NCBI GenBank assembly: GCA_048538215.1
Contig: JBLYPV010000001.1
Span: 397,499-461,498, forward strand
Source: Patescibacteria group bacterium
Lineage (GTDB): Bacteria; Patescibacteriota; Minisyncoccia; Phycocordibacterales; GCA-2747955
Length of the DNA stretch: 64,000 nucleotides
Direction: 5' to 3'
Shown here: in pieces, positions 2,789 through 25,957 of the stretch
Layout of the letters: every line of letters starts with the position of its first letter
Position numbering within the stretch: the stretch's first letter is position 1
Translations under genes and position numbers: made by a program
The notes under the pieces: generated by a model
What the model was told of the DNA's origin: nothing
Seen by the model: only the letters and a program-made list of their open reading frames with translations
Database searches by the model: none

Positions 2789-3340
2789 CTAGATTGATTG
2801 TACTTGTAGAGAATCAAGCTCTACTTCTGTTTCTCGACCAAACATTGATACTGATACTTTTACCTTTCCTGTAATCGGATCAAAGCTTGTGATACTTCCC
2901 TCGGTATCTTTGAAAGGCCCATCAACAATAATTATCGGCTCGCCTTGGGTGAAGACTGATTCGTGTCTGGAGGTATCTTGCTTCATACGATTTACTATAT
3001 CGAGCATCTCTTTGTCGGTCACCGGTACTGGATTGACGCCCGTACCTACAAAGCCCGTTACTCGTGGAGTATTTCGCACGACATACCATGATTTGTCATC
3101 GACCACCATATCTACAAGGATGTAGCCGGGGAATACTTTTTCATCCTCCTCTACCCGCTTTCCTCCTTTGATTTTAATTGTCTTTTCGGTGGGAACAATG
3201 GCATCAAAAATTTTCTCTGTCATCCCCATTGATTCTGCCCGCTGTAGCAAATTACGCACAACAGCATCTTCGTATCCTGCGTAGGTATGAATAGCATACC
3301 AATTACGCATACCCCCTGTGTCTTGTTTTTGTGCTGACAT
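2789..3340 (-). CDS. nusG: transcription antitermination factor NusG
   Basis: WYAIHTYAGYE NGN domain plus KOW motif (GEPIIIVDGPFKDTEGSI). The ORF-track start at 3469 runs into secE in another frame; an internal ATG at 3340 gives a 183-aa NusG. Confidence 0.85.
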   Translation of the reverse strand: MSAQKQDTGGMRNWYAIHTYAGYEDAVVRNLLQRAESMGMTEKIFDAIVPTEKTIKIKGGKRVEEDEKVFPGYILVDMVVDDKSWYVVRNTPRVTGFVGTGVNPVPVTDKEMLDIVNRMKQDTSRHESVFTQGEPIIIVDGPFKDTEGSITSFDPITGKVKVSVSMFGRETEVELDSLQVQSI

Positions 3341-3345
3341 ATATA

Positions 3346-3522
3346 TTAAATAAGAGATTGAATAATTTCGGAGAAAAAGAAGTCGAAAATTCCGAGGTAT
3401 AGAGCGGTAGCAATAGAAAGTATTACTACAATTGTTGTAAGGGTGATGGTGGTGGCTTTGCTTGGCCATCTGACATGGCGCAATTCTGCACGCACATCAC
3501 GAAGATACTGGGTAATTTGCAT
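3346..3522 (-). CDS. secE: preprotein translocase subunit SecE (58 aa, absent from the >=60 aa ORF track)
   Basis: My translation is MQITQYLRDVRAELRHVRWPSKATTITLTTIVVILSIATALYLGIFDFFFSEIIQSLI. It has the SecE V..EL..V.WP motif and a single TM helix, in the conserved position just upstream of nusG. Confidence 0.65.
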   Translation of the reverse strand: MQITQYLRDVRAELRHVRWPSKATTITLTTIVVILSIATALYLGIFDFFFSEIIQSLI

Positions 3523-3656
3523 AAATATGTATTAACAATTCGATTAATTTTAAAAGCCCTCTGGGGGCTTAATAACTGAAATAATACTCTGAATTATGCA
3601 AAATGCAAGCCGATAGATTGTATCCTTTATTGCAGATTTTTTGAGAGGCTCTCAAA

Positions 3657-3693
3657 GTAGAATTTAGTGTCAGGTGCAAATAAATACTACCCT
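3657..3693. repeat. 37-nt hairpin motif, copy 1 (copy 2 at 21038-21074)
   Basis: GTAGaATTTAGTGTCAGGTGCAAATAAATACTACCCT matches the second copy at 36 of 37 positions. Arms ATTT...AAAT/TACTACC are self-complementary. Confidence 0.6.
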
Positions 3694-3739
3694 CTCTTGC
3701 TTGCTTTGGTGATGTGGATATCCGTAGGTGGTGAGGTGC

Positions 3740-6700
3740 CTATTCTTTTCTACTCTTGGTAATAATGTAGGTCATAGCAAGTGCCAATACAAGCCCTGCA
3801 TACAAACCAAAAGCGGTAGAGATACTTGATTGGTTAGCTAAGACTGCTACTCCGATAAGTGCCCCAGTGGGTAAAATAAGAATAATAGCAGTATGTATTA
3901 TCCAGCTCCATACACTCTTCCATGAGCCGTAAGCAAAGCCCTCGAATCGTCGATAGAGAAGTGGAATCATCGCGAGCGTGATGAAGACGCAAAAGAATAA
4001 ACCAAAGATAATAGCGTAAGCAATAGGCGCCCAAATAGCACTAGCATAGAGCAAAGGACTTACCCCAATAATAGTGGTGAGAGTGGTGAGCAGTATAGGA
4101 CGCAGACGCATCACTGATCCTTCGATTACCACCTCGCTGATTGTCCAATCTGGATGCGTAATCCTAAGCTCATTAAATACTGATACTAAAATCAAGGAAT
4201 TATTTACCACAATCCCAAAGAGCGCTATGGTGCCGAGCATTGCAGGAAATGACAAGCTATTGCCTGAAATAAAGAGCCCAATAAGCACCCCTGCTAGGGC
4301 ATAGAACAAGACCGACATCACGATCAAGACTTGTCGCCAGCGACCAAATTGAAGTATAAGAATTGCAAACATCAAAAACAATCCAGCTATAAGCGCTACA
4401 AATATCTCTTGGAATGATTCATTTTGCTCAGCTTGCTCACCGCCAAAGCTATAGACTACCCCGTCTGATACTAAGTCATCTAAATTGTGATTAAATTCTT
4501 TGCGAAGCTCCTCTTTATTAAAGCCGGCTTCAATATCAGCAGTAATACCTACAAAGCGATTGCCGTCTTGGTGGCGAATTACCGTATTAGCTTCTTGAAG
4601 CTCGATATCAATCATACTCCCCAAGCTAATAGCTACGCCTTGTGGATTTTTTACAGAAAGAGCACGGAGCTTATCTGGAGTGATGCGATTTGTTTGAGTA
4701 TCTGTAAGCTCATCGAATGCCAAGCTATTTTTGACCATCACTCGAACATCTTCATTACTTCGAGTAATGGTAAAGACCTCTATCCCCTCGGTAGCCCCCT
4801 GAATTGCTTGAGCAATTTGAAAAATACTAATCCCAAACCGACTTGCTGCACTTCGATCTACTATAATTGCAAATCCAGCAGTATTGCCCGGTAAGGTGGT
4901 ATTAACATTGTATACCCCAGGCACTTCACGCAAGGCTTGGGCAATCCGACGAGCATCTGGAGCAAGTATTGCTGTATCTTCTGAATTAAGTGTAATATCA
5001 ATAGCAGACCCTGTAGGTGGCCCACCCCCTCCCGAAATAAGCTCAGCATATTCAAAATCTGCCCCTTCAAGTACTCTCCGCAGATCACTCAAAAGCATCT
5101 CCCCCTCTGATACAAGCTCGCTCTTGATATTGAGAATAATATTGGCATACTGCTCACCTACTTCTACATTCTCACTGTATACAGAAGTCTTACCAATGGT
5201 AGTGACAAAAGACTCCAGATAATCATACTCCTGTAATTTTTGCTCCACTTTGCTCACTGCTTCGCTTGTTTGATCAAGGGTTGTGCCACTTTCAAGCTCA
5301 ATGGCAATATAGGCAAATTCAATATCTCCTGAAGGGAAAAACTCTGTTTTTACAAGCCCAAAGCCCACGAGCGCTAAAGAGGAAAAGGCAACGAGCGTAA
5401 TACCTACCTGAAATATTCGACGGATATGCGTATGATGGAGCAAAGTATGTAAAAGACGGCGATAGTAAGCATTAAGACGCTCAAAAAAACGAGTTGCCCA
5501 TGGAGTAGTATGACTCTGCACATAGTCGCGATTCTTTAAAAAACTTGCACACAAGACAGTCACAAAGCCGAGCGAAACTACCATAGCTGAAAGTAGCACC
5601 AAAATAACAGTAAAAGGAATACTACGGATAAATTGACCTACAATCCCTGAAAGGAATAGTAGAGGGAAAAAGACTGCCACTGTGGTCATCGTGCCTGCCA
5701 AAAGTGGTAAGCCAAATTCTCGTACCGTAGCGAGCGCGGCTTCTTGCCGACGCATTCCTTCAGCCACCTTGGTATTGATACCCTCTACCACAACAATTGC
5801 AGAGTCTACCAAAATACCAATAGAGAGGATGAGAGCAAAAAGAGAAATAAAATTAATGGTATTGCCCACCATAAGAAAAGCCACGAAAGCAAGCATAAAT
5901 GAAAGCGGGATGGATAGAGCTGCAATAAATGATTCGCGCAAGCCGACAAAAATCATCAGTACAGCCAAGACAAGGAGCATGGTCTGCAAGCCACTCTTGC
6001 TTAAATTACCCAAATCACGCTTGATACTTTCGCCCATATCGAACGTCACTACCGTATCTATTCCTTGAAGGGTGCTCTTCTCTAAACTTGCAAGCGTAGT
6101 ATTAATTTCATCAGTAATCCGAGTAATGTCGCCACCACTTGTCTTGCTCACATTGATGGTGACGGCCTGCTTAATCTCTCCTTTCCCAAGCCCCACTCGT
6201 GTAAAGGTATCGCGAGGGACAAAGCCTGTTTGTACGCGAGCAACATCAGAAACGGTAACGAGCGAATCGCCACTATATGCAAGCGGTATTCGGGGGATTT
6301 CTTCTTCTGAAAGGACTCGCGAAGCTACCTCGATAGGATAAGGTATATTTGCAATCTCCAAGGACCCCCCCGGCACGCTTATACTACTATTTGAAAGGAT
6401 GTTGATTATAGAATTGTAATCAAGCTTATATTGAGCGAGCCGTCGATTATCAATAAGGACTGACACCTCTTTGTCGGGGATACCATCAACCATCACTTGG
6501 GCTACGCCATTGATAGCTTCAATTTTTTCTACCACTTCATCTACTATTTGTTCGAAGCTAAAAAGTGGTAGCGATGATACGAGCGAAACACTCAAAATTG
6601 GCTGTGATGAAAAATCAATCTTACTTACCCGTGGATCATTGCCATCGGCTGGCAAATCTGGAATTGCTTGGTCGATTGCATCCTTAAGCGCATCCACACG

Positions 6701-21518: not shown

Positions 21519-21594
21519 TTGCGTTTGAGGACAAAAAATATATAATATTGCCACATACAAGATACAATTATTTTGTATGAGGTATGATTACACA

Positions 21595-21663
21595 TAGGTG
21601 ATTAGCTGGGGCTGGCTAGAGTAGTCCCCATTACAGATTAAAAATACCGGAAAGCTTTCCGGG
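21595..21663 (+). pseudogene. degenerate partial copy of tRNA-Val (5-prime two-thirds only)
   Basis: Shares GGTGATTAGCT, TGGCTAGAG, AGTCC, TTACA and CCGGAAAG blocks in order with the intact tRNA about 100 nt downstream. Lacks the T-arm and acceptor 3-prime strand. Confidence 0.45.
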
Positions 21664-21696
21664 ATATAAATGAGAGTAAGGTAGGCAATTATATAT

Positions 21697-21773
21697 GGGT
21701 GATTAGCTCAGTTGGCTAGAGCAGTCCGTTTACACCGGAAAGGTCGCAGGTTCAAGTCCTGCATCGCCCACCA
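21697..21773 (+). tRNA. tRNA-Val (anticodon TAC), CCA encoded
   Basis: Acceptor GGGTGAT/ATCGCCC, D-arm GCTC-AGTTGGCTA-GAGC, anticodon arm GTCCG-TTTACAC-CGGAA, T-arm GCAGG-TTCAAGT-CCTGC, 3-prime ACCA. Confidence 0.75.
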
Positions 21774-23313
21774 GAATTTGACTCGTTGGCTTTTGACCGA
21801 CGGATGCATGGGCGGCACGAAGTGCCGCCCATGCTGTTTGCCCTGATTTTTCCCCGTGAATGTGGTCGTCGCCTGCGGCGACGGCAAGGACTTTTCCGCC
21901 GAGGCGGAGGTTCGAGCCAAAGATTTCTTTGGCACAGACCTTTTTCACAAAAAGGTCTGCATCAGAAGCGATTGCGTCAAGACGTGAAGCGGCTTTTAGC
22001 CACTCTTGGAGCAGTTCGAGCCAATCTTCTGCCCTGCGTGAAAGAGAAGATATTTCTTCCTCAAGCGACTTCTTTTCGGAGAGCAGTTTGGCTTTCTCTT
22101 GACGATACGTAACGCGCTCAATATCCTGCTCTAAATAGCCGTCAAGAAGTCGCTGGAGTTTTTGCGAAATGGTTTGTATCTTTGCTTCTTTCTCTTTCAT
22201 GCGGGCAGACACCGACTGGGCGGAGTTCTTGTACTCGGCGATTGCCATGCGGTTCAGCTCCTCCGCCCAGTCGGTGGGCAAAGAAACTGATGTGATGAGT
22301 GATGATAACTGGCGATTCAATACTTTTTCTCGAACGGCAGACTCGGGACACTTCATGTCCTTTCGCTTCTTGGTGCAACGATAGTATGTGTACTCATGGA
22401 CATTGCCATTTTTCTGCCGTTTGAATTTATGCTCGCCAGTTATCATCATGCCGCAAGAAGCGCAGGAAATGAGTCCGCAAAACGGTTGCGGTTCGTTTTT
22501 GGACTTGCGGTCGGGTTGCCCACGACGCTTCAAAACTTCCTGCACTTCATCAAACAGTTTCTTTGCAATGATTGGCTCGTGCGCTCCTTCGTGTATCTCG
22601 CCAGCATATTTGAACAAACCAACATAGAACGGATTGGAGAGGATAAAAGCCGCTCGCGTCTTGGAGATTCTCTTTCCAGAACGCGTAGTGATATTGTGCT
22701 TCGCCAAAAAGATAGCCACATCTTCCAGCCGCATATCACCTTGTGCGTATTTCTCGAAAGCCAAGCGAATGACACGAGCAGATTTCTTTTCAACAACGAT
22801 GGTTTTTGTACGTGGGTCGTTTAAGTATCCGATTGGCGCTTGGCTTGGAAAGATACCCATACGGACTTTTTGGCGAAGTCCCCTTTTCGTGTTTTCGGAA
22901 AGAGAATCGACATAATATTTGCTTTGGACAAATGCCATCGACAACGTAAATTTTCCTTGCGGAGTATTTTCAAACCAGTGCGATGGGAATTTGAGGCTCG
23001 CAAGAGTACCGATGTCTAAAAAGTACACGATTTGTCCGCCGTCCACGGAATTGCGCGCAAGGCGATCGGGGTGCCAAGAAATGATGCCGTCTGCTTCACC
23101 ATTTTCTATTCGCCGCATCATTTCGCCAAAAATGGGACGGCCTGGAACTTTGGCGGTCTGTTTCTCCACAAACTCATCAACAATATGCAAACCTTCATTT
23201 TTGGCGAAAGTACGCAATTCCGTGACTTGAGCATCAATACTCAAGACTTGTTTGTCTTCAACATCGGTGCTCTTGCGAGCATACAAAAAGAATTTTTGCG
23301 GTGGCATAAGCAT
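21730..23313 (-). CDS. large serine recombinase (resolvase/invertase N-domain + recombinase domain + zinc ribbon + coiled-coil)
   Basis: N-terminal YARKST..DKQVLSIDAQ with catalytic Ser, zinc-ribbon CGLISCASCG...YYRCTKK, long coiled-coil. GC about 50 percent with GC3-rich codons unlike neighbours. The last ~60 codons read through IR1a and into tRNA-Val, so the functional C-terminus probably lies near 21916. Confidence 0.85.
   Translation of the reverse strand: MLMPPQKFFLYARKSTDVEDKQVLSIDAQVTELRTFAKNEGLHIVDEFVEKQTAKVPGRPIFGEMMRRIENGEADGIISWHPDRLARNSVDGGQIVYFLDIGTLASLKFPSHWFENTPQGKFTLSMAFVQSKYYVDSLSENTKRGLRQKVRMGIFPSQAPIGYLNDPRTKTIVVEKKSARVIRLAFEKYAQGDMRLEDVAIFLAKHNITTRSGKRISKTRAAFILSNPFYVGLFKYAGEIHEGAHEPIIAKKLFDEVQEVLKRRGQPDRKSKNEPQPFCGLISCASCGMMITGEHKFKRQKNGNVHEYTYYRCTKKRKDMKCPESAVREKVLNRQLSSLITSVSLPTDWAEELNRMAIAEYKNSAQSVSARMKEKEAKIQTISQKLQRLLDGYLEQDIERVTYRQEKAKLLSEKKSLEEEISSLSRRAEDWLELLQEWLKAASRLDAIASDADLFVKKVCAKEIFGSNLRLGGKVLAVAAGDDHIHGEKSGQTAWAALRAAHASVGQKPTSQILVGDAGLEPATFPV
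21769..21915. repeat. IR1a: 147-bp GC-rich inverted repeat (left copy), begins inside the last 5 nt (CACCA) of tRNA-Val
   Basis: Reverse complement is base-for-base identical to 23504-23650 by my manual alignment. Confidence 0.9.
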
Positions 23314-23503
23314 TAAAAGTTAGATTGCTAAACGGCTACTCAAAAAGCCGCCTTGGTGCAATCAATCTAGGCGAACCTAAACTGTCCAAGACGGCTTTTC
23401 GAGCCCGAACATTAAAAACCGCCCAGATTGATTGCAATACTATTGTAGCAAAAATACTTTTTGTATCCAAAGCAAATACTATGAACGCAATCGTCTTCTG
23501 ATG

Positions 23504-23650
23504 TCGAACCTCCGCCTCGGCGGAAAAGTCCTTGCCGTCGCCGCAGGCGACGACCACATTCACGGGGAAAAATCAGGGCAAACAGCATGGGCGGCACTTC
23601 GTGCCGCCCATGCATCCGTCGGTCAAAAGCCAACGAGTCAAATTCTGGTG
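23504..23650. repeat. IR1b: 147-bp inverted repeat (right copy)
   Basis: Perfect inverted match to 21769-21915. Overlaps IR2a by 3 nt. Confidence 0.9.
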
Positions 23651-23879
23651 TCTCTATTGTACCAAGCTCGAACTCATTTTGAACAGAACACCCGCCACGC
23701 GCCGCGCGCGTGGTGATGCAATGCCAAGTCGTACGCATTGGAGTACGCCTCGGCCCCGCCTTCACTCCGTTCCGGCGGGCGCACGCCCAAAATTTCCTTG
23801 CCACTTTTTACGGCTCCTCCCCACACCCCTCCGCCGCGAAGCGGAAAACAGAAAGGAAATTTTGGGGTGCGACGGCGCT
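23648..23879. repeat. IR2a: 232-bp GC-rich inverted repeat (left copy)
   Basis: Inverted match to 25638-25874 apart from one 5-bp indel (AAGGA). Contains palindromes CCACGCGCCGCGCGCGTGG and CGTCGCCGCAGGCGACG. Confidence 0.9.
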
Positions 23880-23977
23880 ACCTTCAAACATGGTGTGGAT
23901 AAGACAAGTGAGAAAATATGCTATTCTTAAAGTCAAAGGTCGTCAGCACATTTATTCAAAATTAATTCTTCAAACTT

Positions 23978-25030
23978 ATGATTAACTTTATATCATTGAA
24001 CCGTAAAGAAATCTTTGTCGGTTTTGTAGTTGCTATTATTTTAGCAATAGCTAGTATTACTTTTGTTTTTGCACAGAGTGCAACCGCGGAGACATCTGCG
24101 CGAGCAAAAGTGGAATTTAATCATCCAGTCTCATTATCTGAATTTGCTACGCTTGTTAAGCAAAACGGAATAATACCAACCGAGTTGCATTATACACAAG
24201 GTGAAATTCAGGGAGGGTACACAGTAGAATTAGGTAAGAGTATTGATGAGGCTCTGGAAGATTTTGCTGAAAAACATGAAACATTCCTTGCACTAGCAAT
24301 TTCGAAGACGGAACAACAAATTAGGGAGGAAAAGGATGAGACCATAAGGCAACGCGCATTAGCATCACTAGAACAGTTGCGTAATGCGAAAATCAAAAAC
24401 GATAACGATGGCTTGAAAATTGATGCGATTGAAACAAATGATAAACAATCCCTCAAAGCATTAGAGCAAACCGATCTTATCAAACAAATAGTGCCTCTGC
24501 AAAAAATAAGCCATAAGATTGGAGCACGAGTAACCAAAGCGTTAGACTCTGCCAAAAGAGCACTGATAGATGTTGTCTATGCAGGTGAATCTTGGGCGCC
24601 GTACGGTGGAGGATCTGATGTACAATACACCTATACTTACCAGACATTTTACTTCGATTACATAGGTGATTACGACAGCGATGACACCTATGAACACGAA
24701 ACGCAGGTGTATGACAACGACTTCGCCGATTATGATAATTACTGGAGTAGTAATATGCCCAATGCGTACAAGGACACTCAATTCCTTGATGATATTGACA
24801 ACTTCACAGTTGGAACATTCACCGCGTCATCGTTGAGCACATACTATCAGTACTACACCTACATGGCTCTTGAACATGAAACAGCAAACAGCGCGACTGT
24901 AAGAATTAAGGGACAAAAAGGTCATCGTTATCCCAGTTGGTGCTACTCGACATGGTGTGTATTCGCTGACGCAACCACAGGCTCAATGGCTGTATTCACA
25001 GCACCGGCGGGCATGAGTTGGCAATACTAA
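23978..25030 (+). CDS. hypothetical secreted/membrane-anchored protein, coiled-coil middle, Tyr/Asp-rich C-terminal domain (cargo gene)
   Basis: N-terminal TM/signal segment. No family recognised. A-T hairpin ACACAAAAAAA...TTTTTTTGTGT downstream. Confidence 0.6.
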   Translation: MINFISLNRKEIFVGFVVAIILAIASITFVFAQSATAETSARAKVEFNHPVSLSEFATLVKQNGIIPTELHYTQGEIQGGYTVELGKSIDEALEDFAEKHETFLALAISKTEQQIREEKDETIRQRALASLEQLRNAKIKNDNDGLKIDAIETNDKQSLKALEQTDLIKQIVPLQKISHKIGARVTKALDSAKRALIDVVYAGESWAPYGGGSDVQYTYTYQTFYFDYIGDYDSDDTYEHETQVYDNDFADYDNYWSSNMPNAYKDTQFLDDIDNFTVGTFTASSLSTYYQYYTYMALEHETANSATVRIKGQKGHRYPSWCYSTWCVFADATTGSMAVFTAPAGMSWQY

Positions 25031-25085
25031 ATTTTACTAGCTTCAAAACACAAAAAAATCGCTTAGCGGTTTTTTTGTGTTCGTT

Positions 25086-25114
25086 TTGTCTTAATTTGTT
25101 TAGACTGTTATAAT
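25086..25114 (+). promoter_or_regulatory. sigma70-type promoter TTGTCT-N17-TGtTATAAT driving a leaderless transcript of ORF 25121
   Basis: -35 at 25086-25091, extended -10 at 25106-25114. ATG begins 6 nt after the -10, with no SD possible. Confidence 0.45.
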
Positions 25115-25120
25115 TTACAT

Positions 25121-25345
25121 ATGATAGTTATTTTACGCTCCATTGGAGTACTGTTTATTCTATGTCCATTTTTTTTATATTGGCTAATTCACGGCGATTA
25201 CAATCGTTATTTATGGATTATAAACGGTCCTTTTCCATTCAGCCATTTCGGGAGCGGTCCTTTTCAACTTTCTGTTTTTGGTGGATTATTTTTAGTTGGC
25301 ATTTTATTTATAATAGGCTCCTTTTTTGTAAAAACTAAAAAGTGA
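25121..25345 (+). CDS. small 2-TM membrane protein (74 aa), cargo gene
   Basis: Two hydrophobic helices, basic C-terminus. Position after a secreted protein resembles immunity-protein arrangements (speculative). Confidence 0.5.
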   Translation: MIVILRSIGVLFILCPFFLYWLIHGDYNRYLWIINGPFPFSHFGSGPFQLSVFGGLFLVGILFIIGSFFVKTKK

Positions 25346-25637
25346 TTATTAATAGCATATTGTGGATAGCAACTTAGAGTGTTTACGAATGTATGGTTTT
25401 TACGAAACGCAAATTTTTTGAATGCCGTGGACTTGACCGAAACCACCAAGCGAACACGCGCAACACCGAGCAGGCCACACGAACGAATGTGAGCGGCCAG
25501 TGCGAGGTGCTTGCGAAGTGTGAGCGGACACAGAATTACCACACGCTCTCGCTATGCGAGCCTCGGCACGGCGCAAAGGACAAAGAAAGCGAAGCTTGGG
25601 AATTGTTAATGACCTTGCGGAGCTTTTGGAGGACTGA

Positions 25638-25874
25638 AGCGCCGTCGCACCCCAAAATTTCCTTTCCTTTCTGTTTTCCGCTTCGCGGCGGAGGGGTGTG
25701 GGGAGGAGCCGTAAAAAGTGGCAAGGAAATTTTGGGCGTGCGCCCGCCGGAACGGAGTGAAGGCGGGGCCGAGGCGTACTCCAATGCGTACGACTTGGCA
25801 TTGCATCACCACGCGCGCGGCGCGTGGCGGGTGTTCTGTTCAAAATGAGTTCGAGCTTGGTACAATAGAGACAC
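25638..25874. repeat. IR2b: 237-bp inverted repeat (right copy)
   Basis: Reverse complement aligns to 23648-23879. Confidence 0.9.
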
Positions 25875-25957
25875 AAATAAAAATCCCGCTAGGGATTTTT
25901 ATTTGGGGTGATGAAAAGCAGCATTGATGCTGCTTTGTCAGGACTTGCATGTTAATA

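Follow-up and report, generated by a model that had tools for sequence, protein, structure and literature searches.

A probable two-gene cargo of a large serine-recombinase element in Patescibacteria: an exported two-domain protein and a small membrane protein

Two adjacent genes in a 64,000-nucleotide (nt) stretch of DNA from the metagenome-assembled genome of a Patescibacteria group bacterium (contig JBLYPV010000001.1, positions 397,499 to 461,498; to be referred to as the window, with positions counted from its first letter) are probably an accessory module of the Patescibacteria that is carried as the cargo of a large serine-recombinase element. The first gene encodes a predicted exported protein of 350 amino acids (aa), and the second a 74-aa protein with two predicted membrane helices. 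Comparison of the attachment (att) sites supports the order tRNA-Val, attL, recombinase gene, inverted intact attP, cargo and attR for the element, over window positions 21697-25905. The features are listed in Table 1, and related loci are given L numbers.

Both open reading frames (ORFs) were found where a preliminary description of this DNA had placed them, and their substitution patterns indicate that they are real genes under purifying selection. The ratio of non-synonymous to synonymous substitution rates (dN/dS), calculated only for pairs with unsaturated synonymous sites, is 0.08-0.11 for the large gene and 0.11-0.19 for the small gene. The 350-aa protein is identical (100%) to NCBI entry MFW0871271.1 (locus tag ACKKL4_02350), encoded on a contig of 622,806 bp. 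It has 124 close homologues, and a profile search of 1.84 billion representative sequences finds a family of 681 clusters at E ≤ 1e-3, 361 of them at E ≤ 1e-10. The exact 74-aa sequence is absent from a collection of 15 billion proteins, and the small gene is therefore unannotated in the source genome; only 14 relatives of its product have been called anywhere.

The two genes are inherited together. A hidden Markov model (HMM) of the small protein matches directly 3′ of the large gene, on the same strand, in 15 sequence-distinct lineages. The small gene is adjacent in all 11 assessable lineages with a large protein at least 46% identical to that of the window, and it is also 3′ of the large gene in L091/92, where the large protein is 44% identical. 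It stands beside a partial or frameshifted large gene in L036, L051/52 and L060. The small ORF, the conservation of which the preliminary description had left to be checked, thus accompanies the large gene and has the substitution pattern of a coding sequence.

The element contains a single recombinase gene. The segment had been described as recombinase-flanked, and this part of the description did not hold: the other recombinase-like ORF (23432-23716) consists of an inverted copy of the gene's final 147 nt together with an att arm. The recombinase shows matches to three Pfam domains (E-values of 4e-22, 2e-14 and 2e-8) and to the PHROG integrase family phrog_95 (E-value of 1e-79), with the catalytic-serine motif YARKST at residues 11-16. 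Its best NCBIfam matches, CcrB and XisF, are far under the cut-offs of these models. More than 7,899 homologues are found at E ≤ 1e-40; among the top 120, identity to the window's enzyme is 70-95%, and all of those with a named source are from Patescibacteria. The NCBI model of the recombinase (P0260, 504 aa) begins at codon 24 (MSIDAQ...), 23 codons late (23245-23313, minus strand). This start drops the conserved N-terminus FFLYARKSTDVEDKQ with the catalytic serine, which is present in the homologues P0261 and P0320. Judged from these sequences, the 527-aa ORF is the better model of the protein.

The att sites are located at the two ends of the element and between the recombinase gene and the cargo. 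All three carry the core CAC(CA) at the tRNA 3′ end, and their arms match over 147 nt (P′) and 212 nt (P). Comparison of the attL, internal and attR junctions therefore identifies the internal site as an intact attP in inverted orientation, GGTACAATAGAGA-CACCA-GAATTTGACTCG, in which the sequence past GGTACAATAGAGA begins CACCA-GAATTT. The P arm is repeated in inverted orientation with 100% identity (23648-23859 and 25663-25874). The internal P′ and P copies overlap by 3 nt, and the internal P copy extends imperfectly to position 23879. The P′ arm has a 13-bp hairpin, GCATGGGCGGCAC-GAA-GTGCCGCCCATGC, followed by a T-rich run. Its outer copy also codes for the C-terminal tail of the recombinase, and homologous recombinases read through the same P′ arm into their own tRNA. 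Beyond attR lies a hairpin terminator, as expected downstream of a tRNA gene, and an analogous terminator abuts attR in L098 and L002. In an empty site this hairpin would follow tRNA-Val, with an expected junction of ATCGCCCAC/AAATAAAAATCCC. The internal inverted attP could not be derived from any single integration, inversion or tandem-insertion event.

The assignment of the pair as cargo, made in the preliminary description, is borne out by a second element with unrelated genes in the same frame of attL, recombinase, inverted attP, cargo and attR (L098). There, perfect repeats of 198 nt surround the cargo and perfect repeats of 145 nt surround the recombinase gene, the arms overlap by 3 nt, and the arm termini, GGTACAATAGAGACAC and CACCAGAATTT, are identical to those of the window. 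The cargo of L098 consists of an AAA_18-like protein, a Peptidase_S51 protein and a 246-aa protein. The full frame with both repeats is confirmed in these two elements. In L094-L097, recombinase-flanking repeats of 118-171 nt abut tRNA-Tyr or tRNA-Leu. The contigs of L094, L096 and L097 end within the repeat region, so that their cargo is out of view, and the contig of L095 begins about 75 nt before the arm. The region of L096 equivalent to the inverted P copy of the window is 76% identical to it.

P arms stand on both sides of the gene pair in the window and in L001-4, L025/32, L028, L030 and L031, and the P sequence itself is conserved in L002, L025, L026 and L031. The repeat of L025/32 is imperfect, at 97% identity, and therefore is no assembly artefact. 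The recombinase gene of L030 has the same position as that of the window. In L030, an IS-like transposase insertion (2845-3581) lies between the right repeat of the cassette and a fragmented second serine-recombinase gene (3689-4479), and recombinase sequence is thus found on both flanks of the pair in this locus. In L099 (6594-8616), a recombinase module stands alone with 53-nt inverted arms between convergent tRNA-Ile and tRNA-Leu genes. This layout would be the expected remnant of recombination between an internal attP and a second tRNA 3′ end, which makes such an event a candidate for its origin. Recombinase homologues in L094, L095, L098, L099 and L100 recur beside one and the same block of housekeeping genes (RbfA, IF-2, DUF4446, aminotransferase class V and ClpB). 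ClpB and the aminotransferase are also close to the recombinase-free pair of L005, which adjoins tRNA-Tyr. The element of the window sits elsewhere, at tRNA-Val beside cmk.

Table 1. Coordinates of the gene pair, the element and related loci. Positions are those of the window unless a locus is named; a slash marks a junction.
Feature	Position	Strand	Description and basis
Large gene	23978-25030	+	350-aa exported protein (predicted); ORF list, homologues, alignment, AlphaFold2
Small gene	25121-25345	+	74-aa two-helix membrane protein (predicted); ORF list, HMM matches, alignment, dN/dS
Large-gene extended -10 element (likely)	23919-23927	+	TG-c-TATTCT; aligns with TGCTAAAAT in L025, L030, L031
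Intrinsic terminator after large gene	25047-25081	+	16-bp stem, T-run; terminator scan
Small-gene promoter	25086-25114	+	TTGTCT (25086-25091), 17 nt, TG-t-TATAAT (25106-25114)
tRNA-Val(TAC)	21697-21773	+	ARAGORN, Rfam; 3′ end (discriminator and CCA) is left half of integration site
attL junction	at tRNA-Val 3′ end		...ATCGCCCA/CCAGAATTTGACTCG; junction comparison
P′ arm, outer copy, part of attL	21769-21915		147 nt, G+C-rich; 100% inverted repeat of 23504-23650
Large serine recombinase	21730-23313	-	527-aa ORF; Resolvase, Recombinase and Zn-ribbon domains
Internal attP, inverted	23504-23879		P′ copy 23504-23650, core CAC/GTG 23648-23650, P copy 23648-23859
Internal site junction			...GGTACAATAGAGA/CACCAGAATTTGACTCG (inverted); junction alignment
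P arm, outer copy, part of attR	25638-25874		Perfect over 25663-25874; ends ...GGTACAATAGAGACAC/
attR junction	right element end		...GGTACAATAGAGACAC/AAATAAAAATCCC...; junction comparison
Hairpin terminator	25874-25905		AAATAAAAATCCC-GCTA-GGGATTTTTATTT; chromosomal, right half of attB
G+C-rich spacer	25346-25637		About 55% G+C, about 290 nt, from small gene to P arm
L098 element	L098 5349-9614		426-kb contig; recombinase 77% identical; at tRNA-Tyr
Partial frames	L096 1-2207; L097 498-2504; L094 8-1932		Recombinase repeat and tRNA
Split-domain loci	L014, L016, L017, L019-L022		Two domains in two adjacent genes
Permuted loci	L024 5785-6939; L085 3193-4386		Both domains in reversed order within one protein

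The 350-aa protein is predicted to have an N-terminal signal or anchor and two domains. Much of the earlier description of this protein was confirmed. The N-terminus (residues 1-36) has a charged n-region (NRKE), a hydrophobic stretch of 21 residues and AXA-like sites (VFA/QS and ATA/ET), a pattern that fits a cleavable signal and a signal-anchor equally well; residues 9-35 are helical in the AlphaFold2 model. This model, calculated from an alignment of 65 sequences, has a mean predicted local distance difference test score (pLDDT) of 90.5 and a predicted TM-score (pTM) of 0.84 for the whole protein. The first domain (residues 43-195) has an alpha/beta fold in the model, and its pLDDT is 90.4 when it is modelled separately. 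The middle of the protein had been described as a coiled coil. A helical hairpin is indeed predicted there (residues 89-117 and 121-144, within 89-144), but it is packed in the alpha/beta domain and does not form an extended coiled coil. A low-confidence linker at about residues 196-202, ending in VYA/GESWAP, leads to the second domain, which is modelled as an all-beta sandwich (from residue 203 or 206 to 350) bridged by Cys322 and Cys327. The C-terminal region (residues 201-350) is rich in Tyr (14%), Thr (11%) and Asp (10%), as had been noted.

The sandwich is the most conserved part of the family in the alignment, and the N-terminal half is the variable part. All 18 invariant positions of the family are located in the sandwich (P208, G211, F226, Y238, E239, E241, Y245, P261, Y264, D266, G279, Y292, Q313, G315, C322, C327, T333 and P343).

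The description of the C-terminal domain as one of unknown family also stands, as none of the family, PDB-sequence and fold searches places the protein in a known or housekeeping family. There is no match to it in Pfam, PHROG, NCBIfam or PADLOC, and no Pfam match recurs among 65 scanned family members. A search of PDB sequences with the family profile gives coiled-coil noise only. Foldseek finds no match at E < 1e-3, either for the full model against PDB and BFVD or for the first domain alone against PDB. Its best matches, all sub-threshold, are generic Ig-like sandwiches (DsbD-N, cohesin and adhesins) and Dpo4 fragments. A weak match to RFC1 (E-value of 0.018) was set aside as noise. Glutamic peptidases, GH16-like enzymes and TasA/camelysin, which were considered for the E-x-E-x-Q strand, were dropped, being absent from the 50 best fold matches listed.

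The two domains are found in several arrangements. In the Proteobacteria, Nitrospirota and other phyla, the sandwich is encoded as a separate protein of about 210 aa, which starts just past its signal peptide (VFA/GEPWAP, AIA/REAWAP or VLA/GEPWAP). The product of the gene immediately upstream is secreted, is about 350 aa long, and in its C-terminal half matches the first domain of the window protein (profile positions of about 25-160, E-values of about 1e-9 to 1e-10). These short-form loci are surrounded by housekeeping genes, which offer no functional clue, and lack a small membrane gene. In two proteins, from an archaeal contig and one other contig, the order of the domains is permuted. Weak matches to Sigma_reg_C, below the cut-off, are found on the first domain of these two relatives only. 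The existence of fused, split and permuted forms suggests that the two domains work together, and the pTM of the model indicates a defined packing between them. Moreover, the linker of the window protein (VYA/GESWAP) aligns with the point at which the mature short forms begin, and from this alignment the protein is likely to be a pre-pro-protein that is cut between A202 and G203.

In longer relatives, the two-domain unit is joined to PKD, He_PIG, RTX, CHB_HEX_C_1, Fn3_assoc, PA14, Golvesin_C or fn3 modules, of the kind that typically accompany secreted glycan-active enzymes and adhesins.

The 74-aa protein has two hydrophobic helices, as proposed earlier. All 23 aligned homologues have a strongly basic C-terminal tail (KTKK, SRKK, RKRYPN and others), which would be cytoplasmic by the positive-inside rule. 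The invariant loop (W-IHG-Y-RY-WII-GP-P---G--PFQ; residues H24-Q49 of the 74-aa protein) is therefore expected to face outward. The protein has no match in Pfam, PHROG, NCBIfam or PADLOC. Other subclades carry different small membrane ORFs next door to the large gene. A kinship with the 103-aa two-helix neighbors of distant family members, suggested by the motif G-x-P-[FLI]-x-F, was rejected (hhalign probability of 0.1).

The two genes appear to be separate transcription units, as an intrinsic terminator follows the large gene and the small gene has its own promoter. Equivalent hairpins are found after the large gene in L002 and L025, and the terminator and separate promoter are conserved in homologous loci. 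The promoter of the large gene is likely the extended -10 element TG-c-TATTCT, which was not picked by the consensus promoter scan. The small-gene promoter (TTGTCT, 17 nt, TG-t-TATAAT, 6 nt before the ATG at 25121) had been recognized earlier and shares the top promoter score of the region (10 of 12 positions, plus the TG).

The leaderless geometry noted for the small gene is real, and the same -35 element, 17-nt spacing, -10 element, 6-nt gap and ATG are found in L025, L029, L030 and L031; the leader is instead 20-29 nt in L001, L026, L028 and L005. It is no special trait of the cargo, however. Among 45 non-overlapping ORFs of at least 150 aa in the window, 19 have a TATAAT-like box (5 of 6 positions) that ends 5-9 nt before the ATG, compared to 2.3% of control ATGs, and a Shine-Dalgarno motif (GGAG or GAGG) is located upstream of only two. 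Leaderless starts thus look to be the norm of this organism, and the layout therefore says nothing special of the cargo.

We infer the processing site, the topology, the contact between the partners and the biochemical role, and the pair may work as follows. The large protein would be exported through Sec as a pre-pro-protein with a signal or anchor, an alpha/beta domain and a disulfide-bridged beta-sandwich. Its two extracytoplasmic domains would be obligate partners that are fused here, split in other phyla and, in a small number of proteins, permuted. The first domain (about 155 aa) is most likely an intramolecular chaperone or inhibitor, and its removal at A202/G203 would release the small Tyr/Thr/Asp-rich domain (about 146 aa). 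A polar cluster in the latter (Y238, E239, E241, Q243, Y245, D266 and Q313) may bind or cleave an extracellular substrate, probably a glycan or an envelope polymer, as suggested by the fusion partners. The small protein would meet the large protein through its outward loop, and either protect the producer, in an immunity-like manner, or dock the large protein. The cargo, between its 212-nt inverted P arms, could flip and take both promoters along. Of the possible roles, effector and immunity protein is a tentative assignment, enzyme or binding protein with a membrane dock an equally tentative one, and a role of some other kind is only slightly less likely.

The effector and immunity assignment can be put in a stricter form, as a bacteriocin or polymorphic-toxin cassette with the 350-aa protein as a toxin against bacteria or the host, the 74-aa protein as the immunity protein dedicated to it, and the element spreading both as a selfish addiction or competition module. 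Several features agree with such a cassette. The gene for an exported protein precedes, across a terminator, one for a small membrane protein that has a promoter of its own; the two are co-inherited in 15 lineages, and they are carried on a mobile element. The large protein has a precursor-like architecture with a possible pro-domain. The small gene stands without a large gene in L088/89, as orphan immunity genes do, and different small membrane ORFs lie next door in other subclades. A bacteriocin-like effector with a membrane immunity protein is plausible. The C-terminal domain, however, is the most conserved part of the protein, with its 18 invariant positions, and it is under strong purifying rather than diversifying selection (dN/dS of 0.08-0.11). 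No toxin, secretion-system or defence model of Pfam, NCBIfam or PADLOC matches the pair, and the neighbors in about 100 loci include no secretion-system genes, with a Sec-type N-terminus as the only export feature. The modules fused to family members, glycan-binding or Ig-like, are those usual in secreted enzymes and adhesins. Housekeeping genes, and no small membrane gene, surround the unit in other phyla, and most of the family has no such small gene. No homologue is found in phage and plasmid records, with a single match in IMG/VR. The polymorphic-toxin reading of the preliminary description is thus not borne out, and the strict cassette as a whole appears unlikely.

The cassette inverts in nature, at least in relatives, as judged from assembled sequences. 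L003 and L001/2/4 are 100% identical and come from different samples, and the cassette of L003 is flipped at a 119-nt repeat relative to the same pilM-side flank. The orientation of the cassette relative to attR also differs between the window and L002 on the one hand and L003 and L031 on the other. A phase-variable surface protein, which the preliminary description had also suggested, would be switched on and off, or altered, by such recombinase-driven inversion. The structural part of this suggestion stood, with perfect 212-nt inverted repeats bounding the cassette, an adjacent serine recombinase gene and both orientations at 100% identity in a relative. The regulatory part did not. The invertible segment includes the likely large-gene promoter as well as that of the small gene, and both flip with it; inversion is therefore no obvious expression switch. 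The first 212-237 nt outside each end are identical, leaving the local context unchanged, and the inversion recombines no coding sequence and leaves each promoter linked to its gene. Moreover, the repeats are att arms that also flank unrelated cargo and the recombinase gene. They look like a property of the element and not a regulator of this cargo, and a phase-variable surface protein is improbable.

Several observations weigh against a mobile accessory module of this design. The pair is found without a recombinase gene (within the sequence examined) or flanking repeats in L005-7, L026/27, L034/35 and L051/52, and it is therefore not always mobile cargo. The small gene is confined to one subclade and was not found by HMM in 19 more distant lineages of the large family, and a small-protein homologue with no large gene beside it occurs in one lineage (L088/89). 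Neither domain has a significant fold or sequence match. The proposed cleavage at A202/G203 is taken from an alignment, and the putative glycan or envelope substrate is read from the fusion partners only. No excision factor was identified in the element, and no empty site or circular form was seen, although no dedicated search was made for either. The evidence for both orientations comes from short-read assemblies of a relative, not from this genome, and the contigs break at the repeat.

A further alternative, an ordinary chromosomal envelope pair that is a chance neighbor of an element, with repeats from decay of the element or from assembly, draws on these recombinase-free pairs, on the wide spread of the large family in non-mobile contexts and on the housekeeping genes adjoining most recombinase homologues, but it is the least probable of the rivals given the P arms around the pair in six lineages (one with the 97% repeat), the exact match of repeat edges and att core in two independent elements, the different cargo in the same slot of L098, and the position of the L005-7 pair at a tRNA-Tyr 3′ end, the element's kind of target, which is consistent with a decayed element.

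The two-gene cargo is a pair from an uncharacterized family with a familiar layout, and the unfamiliar feature of the element, on sequence grounds, is the inverted internal attP with both modules between long perfect inverted repeats. The element resembles other large-serine-recombinase elements (phiC31/Bxb1-type prophages, SCCmec with CcrAB/CcrC, Tn4451 with TnpX and Anabaena XisF) in its recombinase of about 470-530 aa with the same three domains, in the insertion at a short core with attL and attR that share arms with attP, and in the accessory cargo beside the recombinase. Those elements have direct-repeat ends and are not known to keep an internal attP. In comparison, an inverted intact attP is kept here and both modules lie between perfect inverted repeats of 145-212 nt. 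In addition, insertion is targeted to the discriminator-CCA end of more than one kind of tRNA (Val, Tyr and Leu), and no excision factor was identified.

If it were circular, the element would resemble the yeast 2-micron plasmid (FLP/FRT) and isomerizing replicons, with two unique segments and two inverted recombination sites. By this likeness, flipping of the segments would be expected in a circular form. Unlike the 2-micron plasmid, it has a serine and not a tyrosine recombinase, is integrated at a tRNA, has no evident replication function and is known only as integrated sequence. Invertons and their invertases (Hin/Gin/Pin, Bacteroides Mpi and C. difficile RecV) likewise have a segment bounded by inverted repeats beside a recombinase gene, and both orientations are found in natural samples of a relative here. 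However, the repeats are 70-237 nt here compared to about 10-30 nt, the enzyme is of the large integrase type and not a small invertase, and the segment holds whole genes and promoters with no visible on/off logic.

The cargo itself recalls colicin-type and class III or pre-pro-bacteriocin loci, in which the gene for a small membrane protein, under its own promoter, comes after that for an exported protein with a possible pro-region. The sequence and predicted fold have no relation to known families of this kind, however, and the effector candidate is highly conserved, not variable. The domain logic of the large protein, with a pro-domain of about 155 aa that is separable from a mature domain of about 146 aa and yet accompanies it, resembles that of alpha-lytic protease and subtilisin. 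This analogy is one of domain logic, not of homology; there are no protease motifs and there is no fold match, and a beta-sandwich with an E-x-E-x-Q strand forms the mature domain.

Several features of the DNA around the att sites are described here for completeness. The G+C-rich spacer has no homologue in related loci by BLAST and no Rfam match at E ≤ 1. Long ORFs across the spacer and repeats (25393-25848 on the plus strand, 25400-25876 and 23412-23804 on the minus strand) are probably translated non-coding repeat DNA. An outward promoter-like site (TTCAAA, 16 nt, TGgTACAAT) is located at the outer end of each P arm (23656-23683 on the minus strand and 25839-25866 on the plus strand) and is conserved in L098 and L031. 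The copy in the internal attP points across the att core toward the recombinase gene, and leads into the P′ hairpin GCAUGGGCGGCAC-GAA-GUGCCGCCCAUGC and a U-rich tail (hairpins at 21806-21834 and 23585-23613). This arrangement suggests that an RNA of about 95 nt is made across the attP core, immediately 5′ of the recombinase gene. The putative RNA has a fold z-score of -3.9, and Rfam finds only the tRNA in the G+C-rich arms. A partial copy of the tRNA-Val 5′ end is located about 100 nt upstream (21587-21607 compared to 21688-21708, 86% identical) and continues with a D-arm-like sequence to 21640. This copy may be what is left of a pseudo-tRNA.

No description of such an element, and nothing else of relevance, came up in the searchable literature on serine recombinases, inverted repeats and leaderless mRNAs of Patescibacteria. 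A more far-reaching possibility is that the frame represents a previously undescribed, Patescibacteria-wide class of serine-recombinase elements, in which the attP keeps the element active and flips, swaps or deletes cargo against neighboring tRNA 3′ ends, perhaps with the short RNA, and in which the cargo is a new effector and immunity pair against hosts or competitors. Taken as a whole, this is a speculative proposal that we consider quite unlikely.

There is a practical lesson for annotation, as the small gene was missed, the recombinase model was truncated, and leaderless starts dominate the genome. Patescibacteria have tiny genomes and live on other cells, and almost none of their exported proteins and mobile elements has a known function, although these are the likeliest tools of this lifestyle. 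For one such pair there is now a defined family of 681 clusters of exported two-domain proteins, with confident models, a co-evolving membrane partner and clear targets for mutation. If the inverted-attP design is functional, it would represent a new route by which an integrase shuffles cargo, and it would yield a group of recombinases that are compact and highly conserved and whose 24-nt site is defined.

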